This document shows, piece by piece, positions 5,987-31,608 of a stretch of 64,000 nucleotides of DNA. Under the pieces are notes generated by a model, which ran no database searches, was not told where the DNA came from, and saw only the letters and a program-made list of their open reading frames with translations. The stretch lies in the sequence record OY720021; one strand, 5' to 3'. The translations under genes were made by a program, and so were the position numbers. Numbering within the stretch: position 1 is the first letter of the stretch; every line of letters starts with the position of its first letter. The stretch is from Escherichia phage vB_Eco_Solly.

Positions 5987-7552
5987 ATGACTATCAAAAC
6001 TAAAGCTGAACTTTTGAACAAATGGAAGCCATTACTGGAAGGTGAAGGTTTACCGGAAATTGCTAATAGCAAACAAGCGATTATCGCTAAAATCTTTGAA
6101 AACCAGGAAAAAGATTTCCAGACAGCTCCGGAATATAAAGACGAAAAAATTGCTCAGGCATTTGGTTCTTTCTTAACAGAAGCTGAAATCGGCGGTGACC
6201 ATGGTTACAATGCTACTAACATCGCTGCAGGTCAGACTTCTGGCGCAGTAACCCAAATTGGGCCGGCAGTTATGGGTATGGTTCGTCGTGCTATTCCTAA
6301 TCTGATCGCTTTTGATATTTGTGGTGTTCAGCCTATGAACAGCCCGACCGGTCAGGTATTTGCTCTCCGTGCAGTATATGGTAAAGACCCTATCGCTGCT
6401 GGCGCTAAAGAAGCTTTCCATCCGATGTATGCTCCAGATGCGATGTTCTCTGGTCAGGGTGCTGCTAAGAAATTCCCAGCTCTGGCTGCTAGCACGCAAA
6501 CTACAGTAGGTGATATCTATACTCACTTCTTCCAGGACACTGGTACTGTGTATCTGCAAGCTTCTGCTCAAGTAACAATTAGTTCTACTGCAGATGATGC
6601 AGCTAAATTAGATGCTGAAATTAAGAAACAAATGGAAGCTGGTGTACTGGTAGAAATCGCAGAAGGTATGGCTACTTCTATCGCTGAACTTCAGGAAGGT
6701 TTCAACGGTTCTACCGATAACCCATGGAATGAAATGGGCTTCCGTATCGATAAACAAGTTATCGAAGCTAAATCTCGCCAGCTGAAAGCTGCTTACTCTA
6801 TCGAATTAGCACAAGACCTCCGCGCTGTTCACGGTATGGATGCTGATGCTGAACTGTCTGGTATTCTGGCTACCGAAATCATGCTGGAAATCAACCGTGA
6901 AGTTGTTGATTGGATTAACTACTCAGCTCAGGTTGGTAAATCTGGTATGACCCTGACTCCGGGTTCTAAAGCTGGTGTATTTGACTTCCAGGATCCGATT
7001 GATATTCGTGGTGCTCGCTGGGCGGGTGAATCCTTTAAAGCTCTGTTGTTCCAGATTGACAAAGAAGCAGTTGAAATTGCTCGTCAGACCGGTCGTGGTG
7101 AAGGTAACTTCATTATCGCTTCCCGTAACGTAGTTAACGTTCTGGCTTCAGTTGATACTGGCATTTCTTATGCTGCACAGGGTCTGGCTACCGGCTTTAA
7201 CACTGATACTACCAAGTCAGTATTTGCTGGTGTTCTGGGTGGTAAATACCGCGTATATATCGACCAGTATGCTAAACAGGATTATTTCACTGTAGGTTAT
7301 AAAGGTCCGAACGAAATGGATGCTGGTATTTACTATGCTCCATATGTAGCTCTGACTCCGCTGCGTGGTTCCGATCCGAAGAACTTCCAACCAGTAATGG
7401 GATTCAAAACTCGTTACGGTATCGGTATCAACCCATTTGCAGAATCCGCTGCTCAGGCTCCGGCTTCTCGCATTCAGAGTGGTATGCCTTCTATCCTGAA
7501 CAGCCTTGGTAAGAACGCTTACTTCCGCCGTGTATATGTTAAAGGTATCTAA
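5987..7552 (+). CDS. 23: major capsid protein gp23
   Basis: 521 aa; sequence recalled as essentially T4 gp23 (MTIKTKAELLNKWKPLLEGEG...). Confidence 0.98.
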   Translation: MTIKTKAELLNKWKPLLEGEGLPEIANSKQAIIAKIFENQEKDFQTAPEYKDEKIAQAFGSFLTEAEIGGDHGYNATNIAAGQTSGAVTQIGPAVMGMVRRAIPNLIAFDICGVQPMNSPTGQVFALRAVYGKDPIAAGAKEAFHPMYAPDAMFSGQGAAKKFPALAASTQTTVGDIYTHFFQDTGTVYLQASAQVTISSTADDAAKLDAEIKKQMEAGVLVEIAEGMATSIAELQEGFNGSTDNPWNEMGFRIDKQVIEAKSRQLKAAYSIELAQDLRAVHGMDADAELSGILATEIMLEINREVVDWINYSAQVGKSGMTLTPGSKAGVFDFQDPIDIRGARWAGESFKALLFQIDKEAVEIARQTGRGEGNFIIASRNVVNVLASVDTGISYAAQGLATGFNTDTTKSVFAGVLGGKYRVYIDQYAKQDYFTVGYKGPNEMDAGIYYAPYVALTPLRGSDPKNFQPVMGFKTRYGIGINPFAESAAQAPASRIQSGMPSILNSLGKNAYFRRVYVKGI

Positions 7553-23079: not shown

Positions 23080-23109
23080 ACTATAACACAACATGAGGGA
23101 CTTGTAAAC
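23080..23109 (-). promoter_or_regulatory. early sigma70 promoter (GTTTAC -35, TATAGT -10) within a duplicated 53-bp module
   Basis: minus-strand GTTTAC...18 nt...TATAGT, then GAGG SD and ATG of the 96-aa ORF. Confidence 0.6.
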
Positions 23110-25166
23110 TACATTTTGAACTTTTTAGACATTCCGTTGATGTTAACCAAAGAAGCTAAGATTTGAGAAACTTCGTTTTCCTCTTCTTTTGATTCTTCTA
23201 CAAGGAATTGATTAAATCCAGTCATTGGACGAACTTCACCAGTTTCCATCAAATGATCGCCATCATATACTGATTCCTCTAATTGTTCAGAAGGAGGAAC
23301 GATTGTACCTTCGATTAGATACTTGTTATAAGCAGTTTCTTTCATAAAGTAAGTACTTACTTTATTAATCTTCAGTAAAATTCCACGTGGTAGAATAACT
23401 TCAGCTTCTGATGGAAATCCTGATAAATGACCTGGAACGATAACTTTGATTCGCTCAGCTCCTTTAATTACCATACCCACGCTAGTTTCAGCATCTTCAT
23501 TAGCATATGTAGAATGACTACCCATATGCATCAAATCTTCTGCATCAATGGAACCTTCTCCTTCACCAGAAAATACTGCGCCAGAATCATCTAGAGCCAT
23601 ATAGTTTTTACCATGCTCACCGAAGATATTTGGTTTAAGCGATGTGGATACGAAGTTCTTGAAATAGAACATTTTATTTTCAATGTTATGACGCAAAGTT
23701 TTAAAGGTAACTTCTTGCCCACGATAAAGAGTAGTTCCTGGAGGAAGAACTGAACCTTTAGCAAATGCAGAATCCAACGTCTCGATGTGTTTAATAGCTC
23801 GTTCCATATATTCTTCACGGGTAGAATCAGGTTTACCTAAAAGGAACGAGTTCATTTCAACATATGAATCTGCACAATAATCTTCAATTACATCAGACTC
23901 AGCCTGAGTTAATCCTTTTGGAGTTACTTCAGTGCTTGCGTATTCATATGCCTGAGCGGCAGATTCATTAATCAATTTATAAATGCCATTCATGACAAAT
24001 TGAATAATAGCTGTCTTTTCATCTGGTGTAGCTTTAGAACCTTTAACTAAATCATTGATAATTTTCTTAATAACATCAAAGCTATTAGAAATATTAATGT
24101 CAGCAAGATCGCTTAAAATTTTATCAGTTTTATAATCAAAGAATTCTTTATTCTTTAAATATTCTTGAGAACCTTGATATGTTATATCGCTCTGCAACTT
24201 GATAGATGGATCACGTAAACGTGCATGGGCTAATGCAATATGATTTCGGAAACTTTCTAGTTCATAATCGTTAGATTTAAAACGAGAAGCACTTCTCATA
24301 CCACCGATAGCTCCTTTGCTAAAGTTTGAACCAATCTGAATAACGCCAGAGTTCATCGGACCTTCTGCTTTATATACCGGAACTTTAGATTCAAACTCTT
24401 GATATTTCTTAGCAGCGAAGCTATCACCCTGAAGTGAAGCATCAACAGTAGAATATTGAGCTTGTGCTGCTAATCGACGACTAATTTTAGTTTTCTGAAT
24501 AACAGCTTGATCCGTGCGCTTATCATTTTCTAAAGCAATAGAAGCAGCAACAGCGACAGCTTTAGGAACAGCATTACCTGTTTTAACGTCTACATAAACA
24601 TCACCAACCTTTGATTCAACTTTTGTGAATAACTCAGTTGAAATAGGAGGTACACCTGGAATGTCTTCTAAATTGGCATTTTTACGGTAAACCATAATAT
24701 ATGCATATTTCTTATCATAGTCCCAGATTTCCTTTAAAAGAACATATCGACCTGCTCCTTTAGTACGTACTAAACGGTCAGCAATAACTTGCATTTGACG
24801 AGCTGCGCCATTTGTTTTACTTTTTAGTACGCGGAATAGGCATGCGTCGATTTTATACTGTTTCATTGTTTGAAGAGCAGTATCAAAAACAGCATTAATG
24901 ACGCCAATTGGATTTCCACCCAAGTTTCTAAGCTTGACTAACGATAATTTCTCATTAACACCTATCATTACGATATGCATCATTTTGTCGCCTGGCTTAA
25001 CGTTTTTATTCGTATCACCGCCAGAGGTGTATGTACAAAATCTAAATCCAGGAAGCACGCTTTCTTCACCGGCTTGAATAGCAAAAATTTGTGGTATTTT
25101 ATGCTTAGGATTTAAGTTAACAACCGGCGCCGAAGCGCCGTCAAATAATTCTGTAATAAGTTCCAT
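23109..25166 (-). CDS. Alt-like ADP-ribosyltransferase paralog (685 aa)
   Basis: N-terminus MELITELFD... shared with the neighbouring Alt; R-S-E type motifs YRGQ, STS, EAEVILPRG in C-terminal domain. Confidence 0.85.
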   Translation of the reverse strand: MELITELFDGASAPVVNLNPKHKIPQIFAIQAGEESVLPGFRFCTYTSGGDTNKNVKPGDKMMHIVMIGVNEKLSLVKLRNLGGNPIGVINAVFDTALQTMKQYKIDACLFRVLKSKTNGAARQMQVIADRLVRTKGAGRYVLLKEIWDYDKKYAYIMVYRKNANLEDIPGVPPISTELFTKVESKVGDVYVDVKTGNAVPKAVAVAASIALENDKRTDQAVIQKTKISRRLAAQAQYSTVDASLQGDSFAAKKYQEFESKVPVYKAEGPMNSGVIQIGSNFSKGAIGGMRSASRFKSNDYELESFRNHIALAHARLRDPSIKLQSDITYQGSQEYLKNKEFFDYKTDKILSDLADINISNSFDVIKKIINDLVKGSKATPDEKTAIIQFVMNGIYKLINESAAQAYEYASTEVTPKGLTQAESDVIEDYCADSYVEMNSFLLGKPDSTREEYMERAIKHIETLDSAFAKGSVLPPGTTLYRGQEVTFKTLRHNIENKMFYFKNFVSTSLKPNIFGEHGKNYMALDDSGAVFSGEGEGSIDAEDLMHMGSHSTYANEDAETSVGMVIKGAERIKVIVPGHLSGFPSEAEVILPRGILLKINKVSTYFMKETAYNKYLIEGTIVPPSEQLEESVYDGDHLMETGEVRPMTGFNQFLVEESKEEENEVSQILASLVNINGMSKKFKM

Positions 25167-25169
25167 GAT

Positions 25170-27266
25170 TTATCCTTGAACGAACTTGTAAGGCATGTTT
25201 GTAATATCTATGCAAGACGCAATAATTCCAAGAGATGATTCTACTTTCTGTTTAACGTTTGATGAAACAAATGATGCAAAGTCAACTCTGTCTTCTATTT
25301 CAATATCACCTGTCATTGCAACCAATTCACCAGTTTCCATTAAATGGTCTCCGTCATAGATTACCGATTCAGTGAGCTCTTCCGTGGTCATAACTTCAGC
25401 TTGAATGAGTTTTGTATTATTAGATGTTGTTCCGTCATTATTAGAAGCATCAGTTATTTTATTAACTTTGACCATCAATCCACGTGGTAGAATAACTTCA
25501 GCTTCTGTTGCTATTCCGAGACTTCCTGGATATACAACATTAACTTTATGAGCTCCATCAATTGCCCATCCTATTTGAACTTTAACGTATTCAGGATTTT
25601 CTTTATACGCTCTTATTTCGTTTGGATTAATAGTTATTCCTTCTTCATTTTTATCAACTGTTAATTCGTTGCGAGCTTCTGGTTCTAAAAGACCAATACC
25701 AGCGTGTGTAATTCCAAAACGTCCAAAAATGATAGGAGTTAAAGAAGTAGATACAAAATTTCTAAAATAGAACACTTTATTTTTAACTAACGCTTCATAT
25801 ATAGGAGCAGTCATACTTTGAGCACGATAAACTGTAATGCCTTCTGGTATACGGTCACCATTTTCAAAAGCTGAATCTAAGTTATTTATAGCAGATTCAA
25901 TTTCTTTTTCACTCATTACATCATATCGTTCTGGATTGTAACGACCTAAAAGAAGATTATTGATGTCAGTATATCCTGAACCGCAATATTCTCTAATGCC
26001 ACGCTTTTGTGATGGAGTATATTTAGAACCATCGCGGGCAATAGTAATATCAATCATTGGACCAGCACCAATTCCAGAAAAACTGTAAATCATTCGTTTG
26101 AGGAATTTAGTTTTTGCTGCGTTCCAGGAATTTTTAGTTATTTCTTCCCAGACTTCATCTGGTTGTCCTTTACGATTTTTATTATGATTAGCAAGCCATT
26201 TATCTTTATAATCTTCAAAGAATTGATTTACAGCTGCTGCGTATTTCTCTAAACATTTTATTGAAGTAGTTGGTTCATTTTTAATTGCATTAAAAATTAC
26301 TTCTTTAATTTTTTCTGAAACTTCACCGACTTGACTCATTGGAAAGAATTTATAATCATAGTGAAGTTCATCTGCCGTTCCTTCAGCAATAATTTTTGCT
26401 GCCTTTGTTTTAGAAGCTAATGAATTAATTCCAATTTTCATTTCTTCTGCTTCGGGAATTAAAGGTGCAGTAGCTGGTTTATTAAAATTAGCTGCTGTAG
26501 ATTCATACTTCTGGAATAATTCACTTTCAAATCTAGAAGATTCCAATGACTGACTTTGTGCAATTGCTCTACGGGAAATTTTAACTTTAACGATTACGGC
26601 TTGGTCAGAACGTTTATCATTTTCTTGTGCAATTGATGCTGCAATTGCCTCATTTTTAGTTACTTGGGCTCCAGTATCTTTATTGATATAAACATCACCG
26701 ACTTTCGATTCAACTTTAGTAAAGAGCTCGGTACTAATTTCCGGAACTCCTGGAATGTCTTCTAGTGATACATTTTTGCGATGTATAAGAATATATGCAT
26801 ACTTTTTATCGTAATCCCAGAGTTCCTTAAGAAGGACGTATCTACCACCTGAACGACTACGGATAAGTCTATCAGCAATAACTTGAATTTGTCGAGCTTG
26901 ACCGGCGGTTTTAGACTTAAGAATACGAAGCATACAAGCATCAATTTTATATTGACGCATTGTTTGCATTGCAACAGTAAAAACTGAATTGATATAATTA
27001 ATTGGGCTTGGACCAAGACCTTTTAATTTAGCAATTGAACCTTTAGCAGTTAATGTAAAAGGAACAATATGCATCATTTTATCGCCCATCTTTAAATCGC
27101 GATTAGTATCACCTCCAGATGTATAGGTACATAAACGAAAGCCTGGTTGTTCAATTGCATCATCAACATGAACTGAAAAAATTTGTGGTATTTTCTTCTT
27201 TGGATTTAAGTTTGTAATCGGAAGAGTAGTATCTTCGTCAAATAATTCTGTAATGAGTTCCATCAT
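25170..27266 (-). CDS. alt: Alt ADP-ribosyltransferase (698 aa), virion-packaged type
   Basis: R-S-E motifs YRAQ, FVSTSL, EAEVILPRG; TATAAATA late box on minus strand at 27287-27294; adjacent to ligase gene as in T4. Confidence 0.85.
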   Translation of the reverse strand: MMELITELFDEDTTLPITNLNPKKKIPQIFSVHVDDAIEQPGFRLCTYTSGGDTNRDLKMGDKMMHIVPFTLTAKGSIAKLKGLGPSPINYINSVFTVAMQTMRQYKIDACMLRILKSKTAGQARQIQVIADRLIRSRSGGRYVLLKELWDYDKKYAYILIHRKNVSLEDIPGVPEISTELFTKVESKVGDVYINKDTGAQVTKNEAIAASIAQENDKRSDQAVIVKVKISRRAIAQSQSLESSRFESELFQKYESTAANFNKPATAPLIPEAEEMKIGINSLASKTKAAKIIAEGTADELHYDYKFFPMSQVGEVSEKIKEVIFNAIKNEPTTSIKCLEKYAAAVNQFFEDYKDKWLANHNKNRKGQPDEVWEEITKNSWNAAKTKFLKRMIYSFSGIGAGPMIDITIARDGSKYTPSQKRGIREYCGSGYTDINNLLLGRYNPERYDVMSEKEIESAINNLDSAFENGDRIPEGITVYRAQSMTAPIYEALVKNKVFYFRNFVSTSLTPIIFGRFGITHAGIGLLEPEARNELTVDKNEEGITINPNEIRAYKENPEYVKVQIGWAIDGAHKVNVVYPGSLGIATEAEVILPRGLMVKVNKITDASNNDGTTSNNTKLIQAEVMTTEELTESVIYDGDHLMETGELVAMTGDIEIEDRVDFASFVSSNVKQKVESSLGIIASCIDITNMPYKFVQG

Positions 27267-28964: not shown

Positions 28965-29230
28965 TGTTCATCCTTTAGAGTTTGGTTTACAGCTCTATTA
29001 TAAATCAATTCATCATTAAGCTCAGTCAAAGACCTGTGGTACGTTGTTCTAACTTTATTTCCTTGCATCCAGTGCTTGACGTAAATGAAACCTTGCTCTA
29101 CACATTTTTTAAAAATTCGTTCGTCTTTTTGAGCTCGGAATTCTGGATTGCATCTAAAAAATTGATTTACGTGACCGTAATCACGTGTAGTATTACCTTC
29201 ATTTTCATAAATAGTATGAACGACAAACAT
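28961..29230 (-). CDS. hypothetical protein (T4 30.x region)
   Basis: 89-aa ORF translationally coupled to neighbours. Confidence 0.6.
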   Translation of the reverse strand: MFVVHTIYENEGNTTRDYGHVNQFFRCNPEFRAQKDERIFKKCVEQGFIYVKHWMQGNKVRTTYHRSLTELNDELIYNRAVNQTLKDEQ

Positions 29231-30066
29231 TAGAATGCTCCTTGGAAAATATTATCACCACTAGTAGGTCTATTATACAAATACTCTATGCCACCGGGTT
29301 TAATATAATTCCATGTCTGAAACGGATGTGTATAATATGGATGATATGGATTATAAGGATTAAATCCAGGAGTTCTCCAGGTAGTGTTCCAACGAAAAGA
29401 ATCATTTTTAATCATCTTTTCAATTATATTTTTTATAGCTTTTTCGCTATCAAAACTTTCTTTATTTTCCTTTGGTGAAAAAAGCTTATTTTCTACATCA
29501 TTCCATGTATAAACTCGCTGAGCGGTTTTTGGAATATTGTCACGCTCTCCTCGCGCCATCCAATAAACAGGAACATTTAATATTTCACTCGCATGGTCGC
29601 AGTGGTGAGCGAGATCGTCAATATAACAAATTACGTTATATTTCTCTTTTGCCTTTTTAAATAACTCTTCTTTTGAAGAATCATGACCACACATCATTAC
29701 TTCTGAGAAGGCACCAGGAAAAAGAGCATTCAAATTAAATTGACGATTCAGCAGAGCGTCAATAGAATCACCCAATGCTGTAACAGCTACAAAATTATAA
29801 TCTTCTTTTAGTTTGTTAATTACGCACAGGGCATCTTTATATGGAGACAAGTAACGAATAAAATCTGATCGATTGTATTTTTCAATTAACTTAACGCCAA
29901 GTTCTTCGTCACAATTAAAGAGTTTACCTGGAGAAATAAATTTCTCATCTTGGATCATTTTTAAAATATGTTCTAACGGAAGATTATATTTCTGAGCAAA
30001 ATAAGGAAGACCTGATTGCCAGCTTAAACATACTCCATCAATATCAGTTAAAATAGTAGGCTTCAT
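29230..30066 (-). CDS. HAD-superfamily-like protein (DxDG motif) with aromatic/Pro-rich C-terminal tail
   Basis: 278 aa; N-terminal ILTDIDGV motif typical of haloacid dehalogenase-like phosphatases/nucleotidases. Confidence 0.65.
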   Translation of the reverse strand: MKPTILTDIDGVCLSWQSGLPYFAQKYNLPLEHILKMIQDEKFISPGKLFNCDEELGVKLIEKYNRSDFIRYLSPYKDALCVINKLKEDYNFVAVTALGDSIDALLNRQFNLNALFPGAFSEVMMCGHDSSKEELFKKAKEKYNVICYIDDLAHHCDHASEILNVPVYWMARGERDNIPKTAQRVYTWNDVENKLFSPKENKESFDSEKAIKNIIEKMIKNDSFRWNTTWRTPGFNPYNPYHPYYTHPFQTWNYIKPGGIEYLYNRPTSGDNIFQGAF

Positions 30067-30527
30067 AGAGAGTCTCTTAATAGGTTTAACACATCAATAA
30101 ATTCAGCTTCGGTTAGTATTGTATCATCTTTTGTTAGACCACTAGCCATGCTGTGCTTCAAAACTTTTCCTTTCGAGGCTTGTAATGCATCACGAAAGCC
30201 CCTGTTTTGGATCGCTGCTTCAAAATATGCATTTGTGTATAATTCTTTCCATGCTTCGGAATATCTTGAAAACGGAACTCCAAGCCAGAAGAGGGTCCCA
30301 CGGTCCTGAGCTCTAGCATAAGACCTTCCAGCTTGTTGGGCGGCAAGCCCGGATAACCCAAATATACGACGTTGTTGTTCAACATTTTTCACCTTACATC
30401 CTTGGAGGAATCCTTCGAGACCTCCGAATTGAATACCATCCATGACGAAAGGCCATTGGGCGAAATTACTTAATGCGCATGATGGCCATCTAAAATTGCT
30501 TCTTATCTCTAACTCAGACATTTTCAA
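30063..30527 (-). CDS. NADAR / YbiA-like (DUF1768) domain protein
   Basis: 154 aa; motif LSNFAQWPF...DG...F resembling the E. coli YbiA N-terminal signature; judged by eye only. Confidence 0.6.
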   Translation of the reverse strand: MKMSELEIRSNFRWPSCALSNFAQWPFVMDGIQFGGLEGFLQGCKVKNVEQQRRIFGLSGLAAQQAGRSYARAQDRGTLFWLGVPFSRYSEAWKELYTNAYFEAAIQNRGFRDALQASKGKVLKHSMASGLTKDDTILTEAEFIDVLNLLRDSL

Positions 30528-30720
30528 TACTTATAATTTCAACATCAGCCCAATGACCATAGCAAGGAAGACGAAATTCAACTGGCCAGTTAGGATCCTT
30601 TTCTAATATAATAGACTGAACTTGTGGCTCTTCATGTTCATCGGTATACGGACCTTTATACGTTACTTTATATGTAACCTTAATGTACTGAATTCCAAAA
30701 ATCTTATTAATTATATTCAT
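30514..30720 (-). CDS. hypothetical protein
   Basis: 68-aa ORF in the tightly packed early array. Confidence 0.5.
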   Translation of the reverse strand: MNIINKIFGIQYIKVTYKVTYKGPYTDEHEEPQVQSIILEKDPNWPVEFRLPCYGHWADVEIISIENV

Positions 30721-30914
30721 ATTAATTCCTTTAATCCGTAAATAGGAGATAATTCATCACCCATACGAAGGTCTTCATTTCCATCTACCCAGGAAACAAT
30801 ATAAGCCTCTTTTATTTGAATACCACTCCATTTAAATGGAGGTAGAACCTTAGAAATTAATCCAGGTATACCAACCCCCTTTAATTCAACAGTTTGACCT
30901 AAAAAGAATTTCAT
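30717..30914 (-). CDS. hypothetical protein
   Basis: 65-aa ORF, ATGA-coupled. Confidence 0.5.
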   Translation of the reverse strand: MKFFLGQTVELKGVGIPGLISKVLPPFKWSGIQIKEAYIVSWVDGNEDLRMGDELSPIYGLKELI

Positions 30915-31201
30915 TAGAACCTCATCTGAAAACCATGCGATTTAACATTACCGCCGCCGATATCAGAAATGTTAATTTCGCGCGCGATTGAAGGGTCAAT
31001 GTCAATTTCACGGTTGAGTTTAGTGATAGCTAGAGTATCACGCCCATTTACAGTACGGAACTCTAAAGGACATACTACATTAACATAGTTTTTAATCGAT
31101 TCACTGGTAGGCTGCAAATGAGCAGGAAGGTCTTTAGGCGCCTTAGAGAAAACTACTTCGCAGAAGTTTTTACGAGTATCAAAATAAGTAGTCATAAACA
31201 T
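30914..31201 (-). CDS. hypothetical protein
   Basis: 95-aa ORF. Confidence 0.55.
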   Translation of the reverse strand: MFMTTYFDTRKNFCEVVFSKAPKDLPAHLQPTSESIKNYVNVVCPLEFRTVNGRDTLAITKLNREIDIDPSIAREINISDIGGGNVKSHGFQMRF

Positions 31202-31242
31202 AGTATTTTCCTCAGTAAGGGGCCGAAGCCCCTTATTTTATT

Positions 31243-31608
31243 TTAAATATCAAATTCGTTAAGAACTACATCAAAGATTGCTTCAAGATGCTCAGGTTTA
31301 GCTCTGTTACTCAGAATATGACGAATCCAAGTTTTAACCAGAAGCTTACGATTAACGCCATTCCAGCAAGGATGAGTCCCTAAATCACGTTGACGGAAAT
31401 CATCATCCAAAGCGATTTTAAAAGAAGAACCTTCTTTCGTGATTGAAACCGTAATGCCATTTTCAAATCGCATATAAACGTAGTTAGGAGTCATATACTG
31501 TTCAATTTCGCATACTGATCCATTTTGATGTTTCCAAAGGCAAATAGTATCAATAGAACCTGCAATACCGTTAGAAACATATTTACGTTCAAAGTTGATG
31601 TAGTTCAT
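31243..31608 (-). CDS. hypothetical protein
   Basis: 121-aa ORF with early promoter at 31646-31674. Confidence 0.6.
   Translation of the reverse strand: MNYINFERKYVSNGIAGSIDTICLWKHQNGSVCEIEQYMTPNYVYMRFENGITVSITKEGSSFKIALDDDFRQRDLGTHPCWNGVNRKLLVKTWIRHILSNRAKPEHLEAIFDVVLNEFDI

Follow-up and report, generated by a model that had tools for sequence, protein, structure and literature searches.

The closest described counterpart of the gene considered here is gene 30.3 of the T-even phages, to which their resistance to DarTG1 has been mapped and which was consequently renamed adfN, for anti-DarT factor NADAR (Johannesman et al., PMC11825919). The gene is necessary and sufficient for the DarTG1 resistance of T-even phages (PMC11825919, PMC11125620): T4 and T2 that lack it no longer form plaques on DarTG1 cells, and RB69 is rescued when it is expressed (PMC11825919). 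Purified T4 AdfN strips ADP-ribose from DarT1-modified DNA and the E36A protein does not, while T4 AdfN neither binds DarT1 nor counters DarTG2 (PMC11825919). Guanosine-ADPr is hydrolysed by the T4 NADAR and thymidine-ADPr is not (PMC11125620), nor is cytidine-ADPr (PMC12945103). In uninfected cells the T4 enzyme gives no protection against DarT1, and phages other than T-even ones gain little from it (PMC11825919, PMC11125620), with T5 and Bas25 hardly helped by the T4-type enzyme (PMC11825919), so that the simple picture of a free-standing antitoxin is incomplete; a T-even-encoded factor was suspected by the authors to be required for T4-type AdfN (PMC11825919).

Other NADARs differ from the T4-type enzyme in ways that bear on this comparison. 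AdfN-Bas32 (T5-like) and AdfN-Bas60 (Vequintavirinae) are, like T4-type AdfN, orphan phage NADARs with a role against DarTG1 and with specificity for the guanine adduct, but they were acquired independently, belong to other NADAR branches and, unlike the T4-type enzyme, are active without T-even infection (PMC11825919); both protect uninfected cells from DarT1 and help T5 and Bas25 (PMC11825919). YbiA of E. coli (PDB 2b3w; PF08719, NADAR/DUF1768), which is annotated as an N-glycosidase, is a host protein that does not serve phage counter-defence; its gene neighbours dinG, which encodes a DNA helicase, in an operon described as LexA-controlled and induced by DNA damage (PMC11125620). The family of the gene had been predicted years earlier: within the NADAR superfamily, the phage gp30.3 proteins formed the His-type clade.

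The window analysed here, the whole stretch of 64,000 nucleotides from Escherichia phage vB_Eco_Solly (record OY720021), is part of a T4-like (Tequatrovirus) genome. Its positions 29000-31500 share 98.6% identity with Escherichia phage ECO07P2 and match 730 phage records, and homologues of the adfN ORF are found by tblastn in 1510 phage records. The 152-aa product is identical to T4 gp30.3 (NP_049816) at 149 of 152 positions (98%), the only substitutions being P89E, K107R and I125M, all of which sit where the family itself is variable, M125 being its majority residue (82-sequence alignment). The gene order 30.4-30.3-30.2-30.1-ligase matches that of T4 (NC_000866), and T4 AdfN (Johannesman et al., Nat Commun 2025, PMC11825919) also shares with the window protein its length, the overlaps of its gene with 30.4 and 30.2, the residues E36, K43 and H123 and the C-terminal helix. 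The ORF is almost certainly the Tequatrovirus orthologue of T4 gene 30.3/adfN, encoding a NADAR guanine-ADP-ribose DNA hydrolase that counters DarTG1. From its T4 counterpart the window protein is predicted to have the hydrolase activity, to act specifically on guanine adducts and to protect the phage from DarTG1, and the finding is already known in that the activity and anti-DarTG1 role of the T4 protein were published in 2024-2025. The features of the locus are collected in the table.

Table. Positions, in the window, of adfN, its functional residues and the neighbouring genes discussed in the text
Feature	Position	Strand	Remarks
adfN (T4 gene 30.3) CDS	30063..30521	-	152 aa + stop; ATG as used in the T4 annotation
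Extra codons TTG AAA, source of the 154-aa ORF	30522..30527	-	sequence ...GTATTGAAAATGTCTGAG...; T4 annotation and E36/K43 numbering (PMC11825919) favour the ATG
ATGA overlap, adfN stop TGA / gene 30.2 start ATG	30063..30066	-	ORF coordinates and sequence; T4 likewise
ATGTCTGA overlap, adfN start ATG / end of upstream gene 30.4 (stop TGA 30514-30516)	30514..30521	-	T4 likewise
Codon GAA, catalytic Glu36 (= YbiA E48, P. nicotianae NADAR E43)	30414..30416	-	invariant in 82 sequences; aligned to YbiA Glu
Codon AAG, Lys43, phosphate-coordinating (= YbiA K55, P. nicotianae NADAR K50, E. coli C7 NADAR K95)	30393..30395	-	at least 90% conserved
Codon CAC, His123, last beta-strand	30153..30155	-	invariant in 82 sequences; replaces YbiA-family Glu / DarG1 Asp
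C-terminal alpha-helix, residues 138-151	30069..30110	-	from the model; ...VLNLLRDSL end identical to T4
Counterpart of T4 30.3'	30158..30385	-	75-aa ORF in a different frame within adfN
Gene 30.2	29230..30066	-	278 aa; 97% identical to T4 gp30.2
Alt-type ADP-ribosyltransferase, ligase-proximal	25170..27266	-	full-length; PF03496
Alt-type ADP-ribosyltransferase, second	23109..25166	-	full-length; PF03496

A sequence-only reading of the window had reported a 154-aa ORF at 30063-30527, and this ORF is borne out: the frame lies on the minus strand, opens with a TTG at 30527, contains the ...ALSNFAQWPFVMDG... motif (ORF listing) and gives a match to PF08010 (Phage_30_3) with E=3e-69 (hmmscan), which together with the identity to T4 gp30.3 shows that it is not a chance ORF. 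In T4, gene 30.3 is annotated with 459 nt and 152 aa, and the equivalent start is the ATG at 30521, two codons downstream of the TTG. With this start, the published T4 numbering of E36 and K43 lands exactly on the Glu and the Lys; the TTG is probably unused as an alternative start. Translational coupling of adfN and 30.2 through their ATGA overlap is possible, and a scan for promoters and terminators around adfN gave a signal no better than that in shuffled sequence. The 30.3' frame within adfN is annotated in T4 as an internal translation. It was rejected as a conserved coding sequence, as no selection was seen: its ATG is changed to ACG, ATT or ATC in eight of 15 close homologues, one of the 15 has an internal stop, and third-position changes of adfN are equally frequent within and outside the overlap.

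PF08010 is the sole Pfam match of the window protein, and PF08719 (NADAR) gives no match to this single sequence even at E<=10 (hmmscan). The window protein alone also matches nothing in NCBIfam, in PADLOC or, by phmmer, among PDB sequences. The relationship to NADAR emerges from the family as a whole, for which 94 homologues were collected and 82 sequences aligned, i.e., the window protein, T4 gp30.3 and 80 full-length homologues. PF08719 is matched individually by 33 of the 82 members (best E=1.5e-7), the best PDB-sequence match of the family profile is E. coli YbiA (E=0.011), and hhalign comparison of the family with YbiA gives a probability of 93.6% (E=2e-7, 90 columns). The link to PF08719 is visible only at the family level because Pfam files the gp30.3 proteins separately, as PF08010. 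Although overall identity between the window protein and YbiA is only about 20%, BLASTP aligns the two at 33% identity over 57 aa with a pairwise E=7e-6, and the AlphaFold2 model built from the family alignment (mean pLDDT 92.4, pTM 0.87) has the YbiA fold, in which a helical core is flanked by two small beta-hairpins. Based on the profile-profile comparison, the fold search and the catalytic residues, the window protein is a NADAR. The assignment to NADAR/YbiA that the sequence-only reading had made by eye thus holds, and the likeness to YbiA that it saw in the N-terminal motif is real though weak; of the checks that it had suggested, the PF08719 search is negative for the single sequence but positive for the family, and the structure prediction agrees with YbiA.

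In the YbiA motif SEHYFQAQKF, the Glu is aligned to E36 of the window protein and the Lys to K43 (family profile against PDB; hhalign). The catalytic Glu contacts the distal ribose in the NADAR of P. nicotianae (E43) and in YbiA (E48), and the E36A and K43A substitutions each impair T4 AdfN (PMC11825919). H123 is found in strand 120-123 of the AlphaFold2 model. Because the hhalign alignment stops at K122 of the window protein and V124 of YbiA, it is by extension that H123 is placed opposite YbiA E125, and a last-strand His is the hallmark of the phage NADAR clade (PMC11543638, PMC11125620). For the C-terminal helix, the evidence comes from RB69, whose frameshift allele has lost the last 15 residues and is inactive, and from T4 AdfN, which shows reduced activity when cut at the same place (PMC11825919). 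Much of the helix lies within the 15 residues missing from the RB69 allele. The window allele, in which the helix is intact, is full length, unlike the RB69-type frameshift truncation, and the phage is therefore predicted to be resistant to DarTG1 hosts.

Based on the published work on T4, we propose that in a DarTG1 host DarT1 would attach ADP-ribose to guanine of the phage DNA and thereby block its replication, and that AdfN would hydrolyse the N-glycosidic guanine-ADP-ribose bond, releasing ADP-ribose and restoring the base, after which the template could be replicated again and phage replication could proceed. Catalysis would involve Glu36 at the distal ribose, Lys43 at the phosphate and His123 at the position usually occupied by Glu or Asp, and full activity would need the C-terminal helix. 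AdfN, a minimal single-domain NADAR, would in effect be a phage-carried orphan copy of a DarG1-like antitoxin. It differs from DarG1 in several respects: AdfN is the bare core domain without the N-terminal extension of DarG1 (PMC12945103); the DarG1 NADARs (BC4488 family; G. lovleyi 8bat, E. coli C7 NADAR) possess an Asp on the last strand, where the window protein has His123; DarG1 adjoins DarT, whereas adfN of the window adjoins 30.4 and 30.2 and no ART; and T4 AdfN cannot stand in for DarG1 in uninfected cells. With no adjacent DarT1, a His instead of the Asp and no match to any PADLOC defence-system model, the window protein falls outside DarG1. By analogy with the T4 protein, it is predicted to work like DarG1 but as an orphan, outside any TA pair.

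Published work has already raised the question of what confines the action of the T4-type enzyme to T-even infection. T4-type AdfN may need a T-even partner or context in vivo, for which gp30.2 is a candidate, or it may also act on another substrate within the phage's own biology, e.g., nucleic acids ADP-ribosylated by phage ARTs; we consider either improbable. The candidate partner, alone or as a profile of 12 sequences, has no match in Pfam, NCBIfam, PADLOC or the PDB sequences. In the 12-sequence alignment its invariant residues are D8-x-D10-G11, T96, K132 and D150-D151, and this four-motif signature suggests that gp30.2 may be a HAD phosphatase. Its C-terminal tail (approximately residues 200-278) is rich in Pro, Tyr and Asn and is variable or missing in relatives. 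Gene 30.2 adjoins adfN in only about one fourth of 80 related IMG/VR loci, which argues against an obligate partnership across the family. In L022 and L023, gp30.2 seemed to be joined to DNA ligase in a 703-aa protein; this was rejected as an artefact of ORF extension, as two in-frame stops lie between the genes.

The sequence-only reading had placed the ORF about 3 kb from a pair of Alt genes, which is correct, the nearer Alt ending 2.8 kb from the adfN ORF with alt.1, DNA ligase, 30.1 and 30.2 between them. It had proposed for the ORF both the countering of DarT-type host ADP-ribosylating defence and the modulation of the phage's own Alt modification; the former agrees with published T4 genetics and biochemistry (PMC11825919, PMC11125620), while the latter has found no support. 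Both Alts begin with the N-terminus MELITELFD. The ligase-proximal one is the orthologue of T4 Alt and is mosaic: its overall identity is 71%, with a nearly perfect match to T4 over the ~250 N-terminal and the ~100 C-terminal residues and only about half of the residues identical in the middle, which includes the ART domain. The second shares 41% identity with T4 Alt and occupies the place of the decayed remnants alt.-1 and alt.-2 of T4. Whereas T4 has one Alt and these remnants, the window phage has two full-length Alt paralogues downstream of adfN, a difference not known to bear on AdfN.

It could be argued from these two paralogues, 2.8-7 kb off and on the same strand, that AdfN erases the ADP-ribosylation made by the phage itself (by the injected Alt enzymes, or by ModA/ModB) and so tunes or resets the modification of host protein or RNA; the literature searched contained no test of the T4 NADAR on arginine-ADP-ribosylated protein or on Alt products, and it has been noted before, in general terms, that early expression of T4-like NADARs occurs 'along with the ARTs' (PMC9503650). 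We regard this as very improbable, as the linkage to Alt is not conserved. The 80 related IMG/VR loci were surveyed by tblastn for Alt homologues in up to 10 kb of flanking sequence per side, a survey confined, among ARTs of the Alt, ModA/ModB or other types, to the Alt homologues. An Alt homologue is found within the flank in 15 of the 80 loci, all of them T-even-like or close, which are every locus with at least 84% AdfN identity that extends downstream plus three with 42-47%. The other 65 have no Alt in the flank; 63 of them have identities of 37-45%, and two are high-identity contigs that end just downstream of adfN. Among the four annotated distant phages, the T4 order 30.3-30.2-ligase-alt is kept only in the Acinetobacter phage, the adfN homologue being found inside a tRNA cluster in Aeromonas 44RR2.8t and Yersinia phiR1-RT and next to genes 46/47 in Vibrio D485. 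The survey and these gene placements indicate that the proximity to Alt reflects a gene order shared among T-even phages around gene 30 (local synteny) and not a conserved pairing, and on their basis we reject a functional coupling of Alt and NADAR as a conserved feature. T4 Alt ADP-ribosylates arginine in proteins. All demonstrated NADAR substrates, in contrast, are nucleobase adducts (PMC11543638, PMC12945103), and DarTG1 fully accounts for the adfN deletion phenotype (PMC11825919).

Another reading, in line with what was predicted for phage NADARs before 2023 (PMC9503650), is that the protein chiefly degrades small soluble derivatives of ADP-ribose or immune signals made from NAD, or works as a YbiA-like N-glycosidase on riboflavin intermediates, instead of acting on DNA adducts. 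It would fit the N-glycosidase annotation of YbiA and the fold and catalytic Glu/Lys common to YbiA and AdfN, but as the main role it is hardly credible given that the T4 protein acts directly on ADP-ribosylated DNA with a DarTG1-specific phenotype (PMC11825919; PMC11125620) and that no signalling-defence phenotype was found in the literature searched; an extra side activity of the protein is conceivable.

For a guanine-ADP-ribose hydrolase that counters DarTG1, the reading we prefer, the practical value of the present analysis lies in annotation, as the gene can be named AdfN / NADAR guanine-ADP-ribose glycohydrolase. The published AdfN/NADAR name is so far absent from phage annotation. Nearly all inspected GenBank phage records call adfN a 'hypothetical protein'; in PQ657794.1 (Klebsiella phage Roth21) the feature under the match is labelled 'anti-CBASS protein acb1', and other records bear clearly wrong structural names in the adfN region. 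Among natural adfN alleles, many are shortened to 83-126 aa or contain Pfam domains that belong to adjacent genes, e.g., PF06919, PF06019 and PF11097 (the alleles concerned are P0004-P0007, P0013-P0018, P0020, P0041 and P0093, some of which may be contig-end artefacts). Their sequences suggest that in wild T4-like phages adfN may often be disrupted or have lost a part, as in the frameshift allele of RB69. In phiR1-RT (L007), the annotated CDS covers 6136-6453 and the tblastn match 6001-6438, and because the CDS is shorter than the match its start has probably been mis-called; in 44RR2.8t.2 (L004), the adfN homologue is located at 6001-6450.
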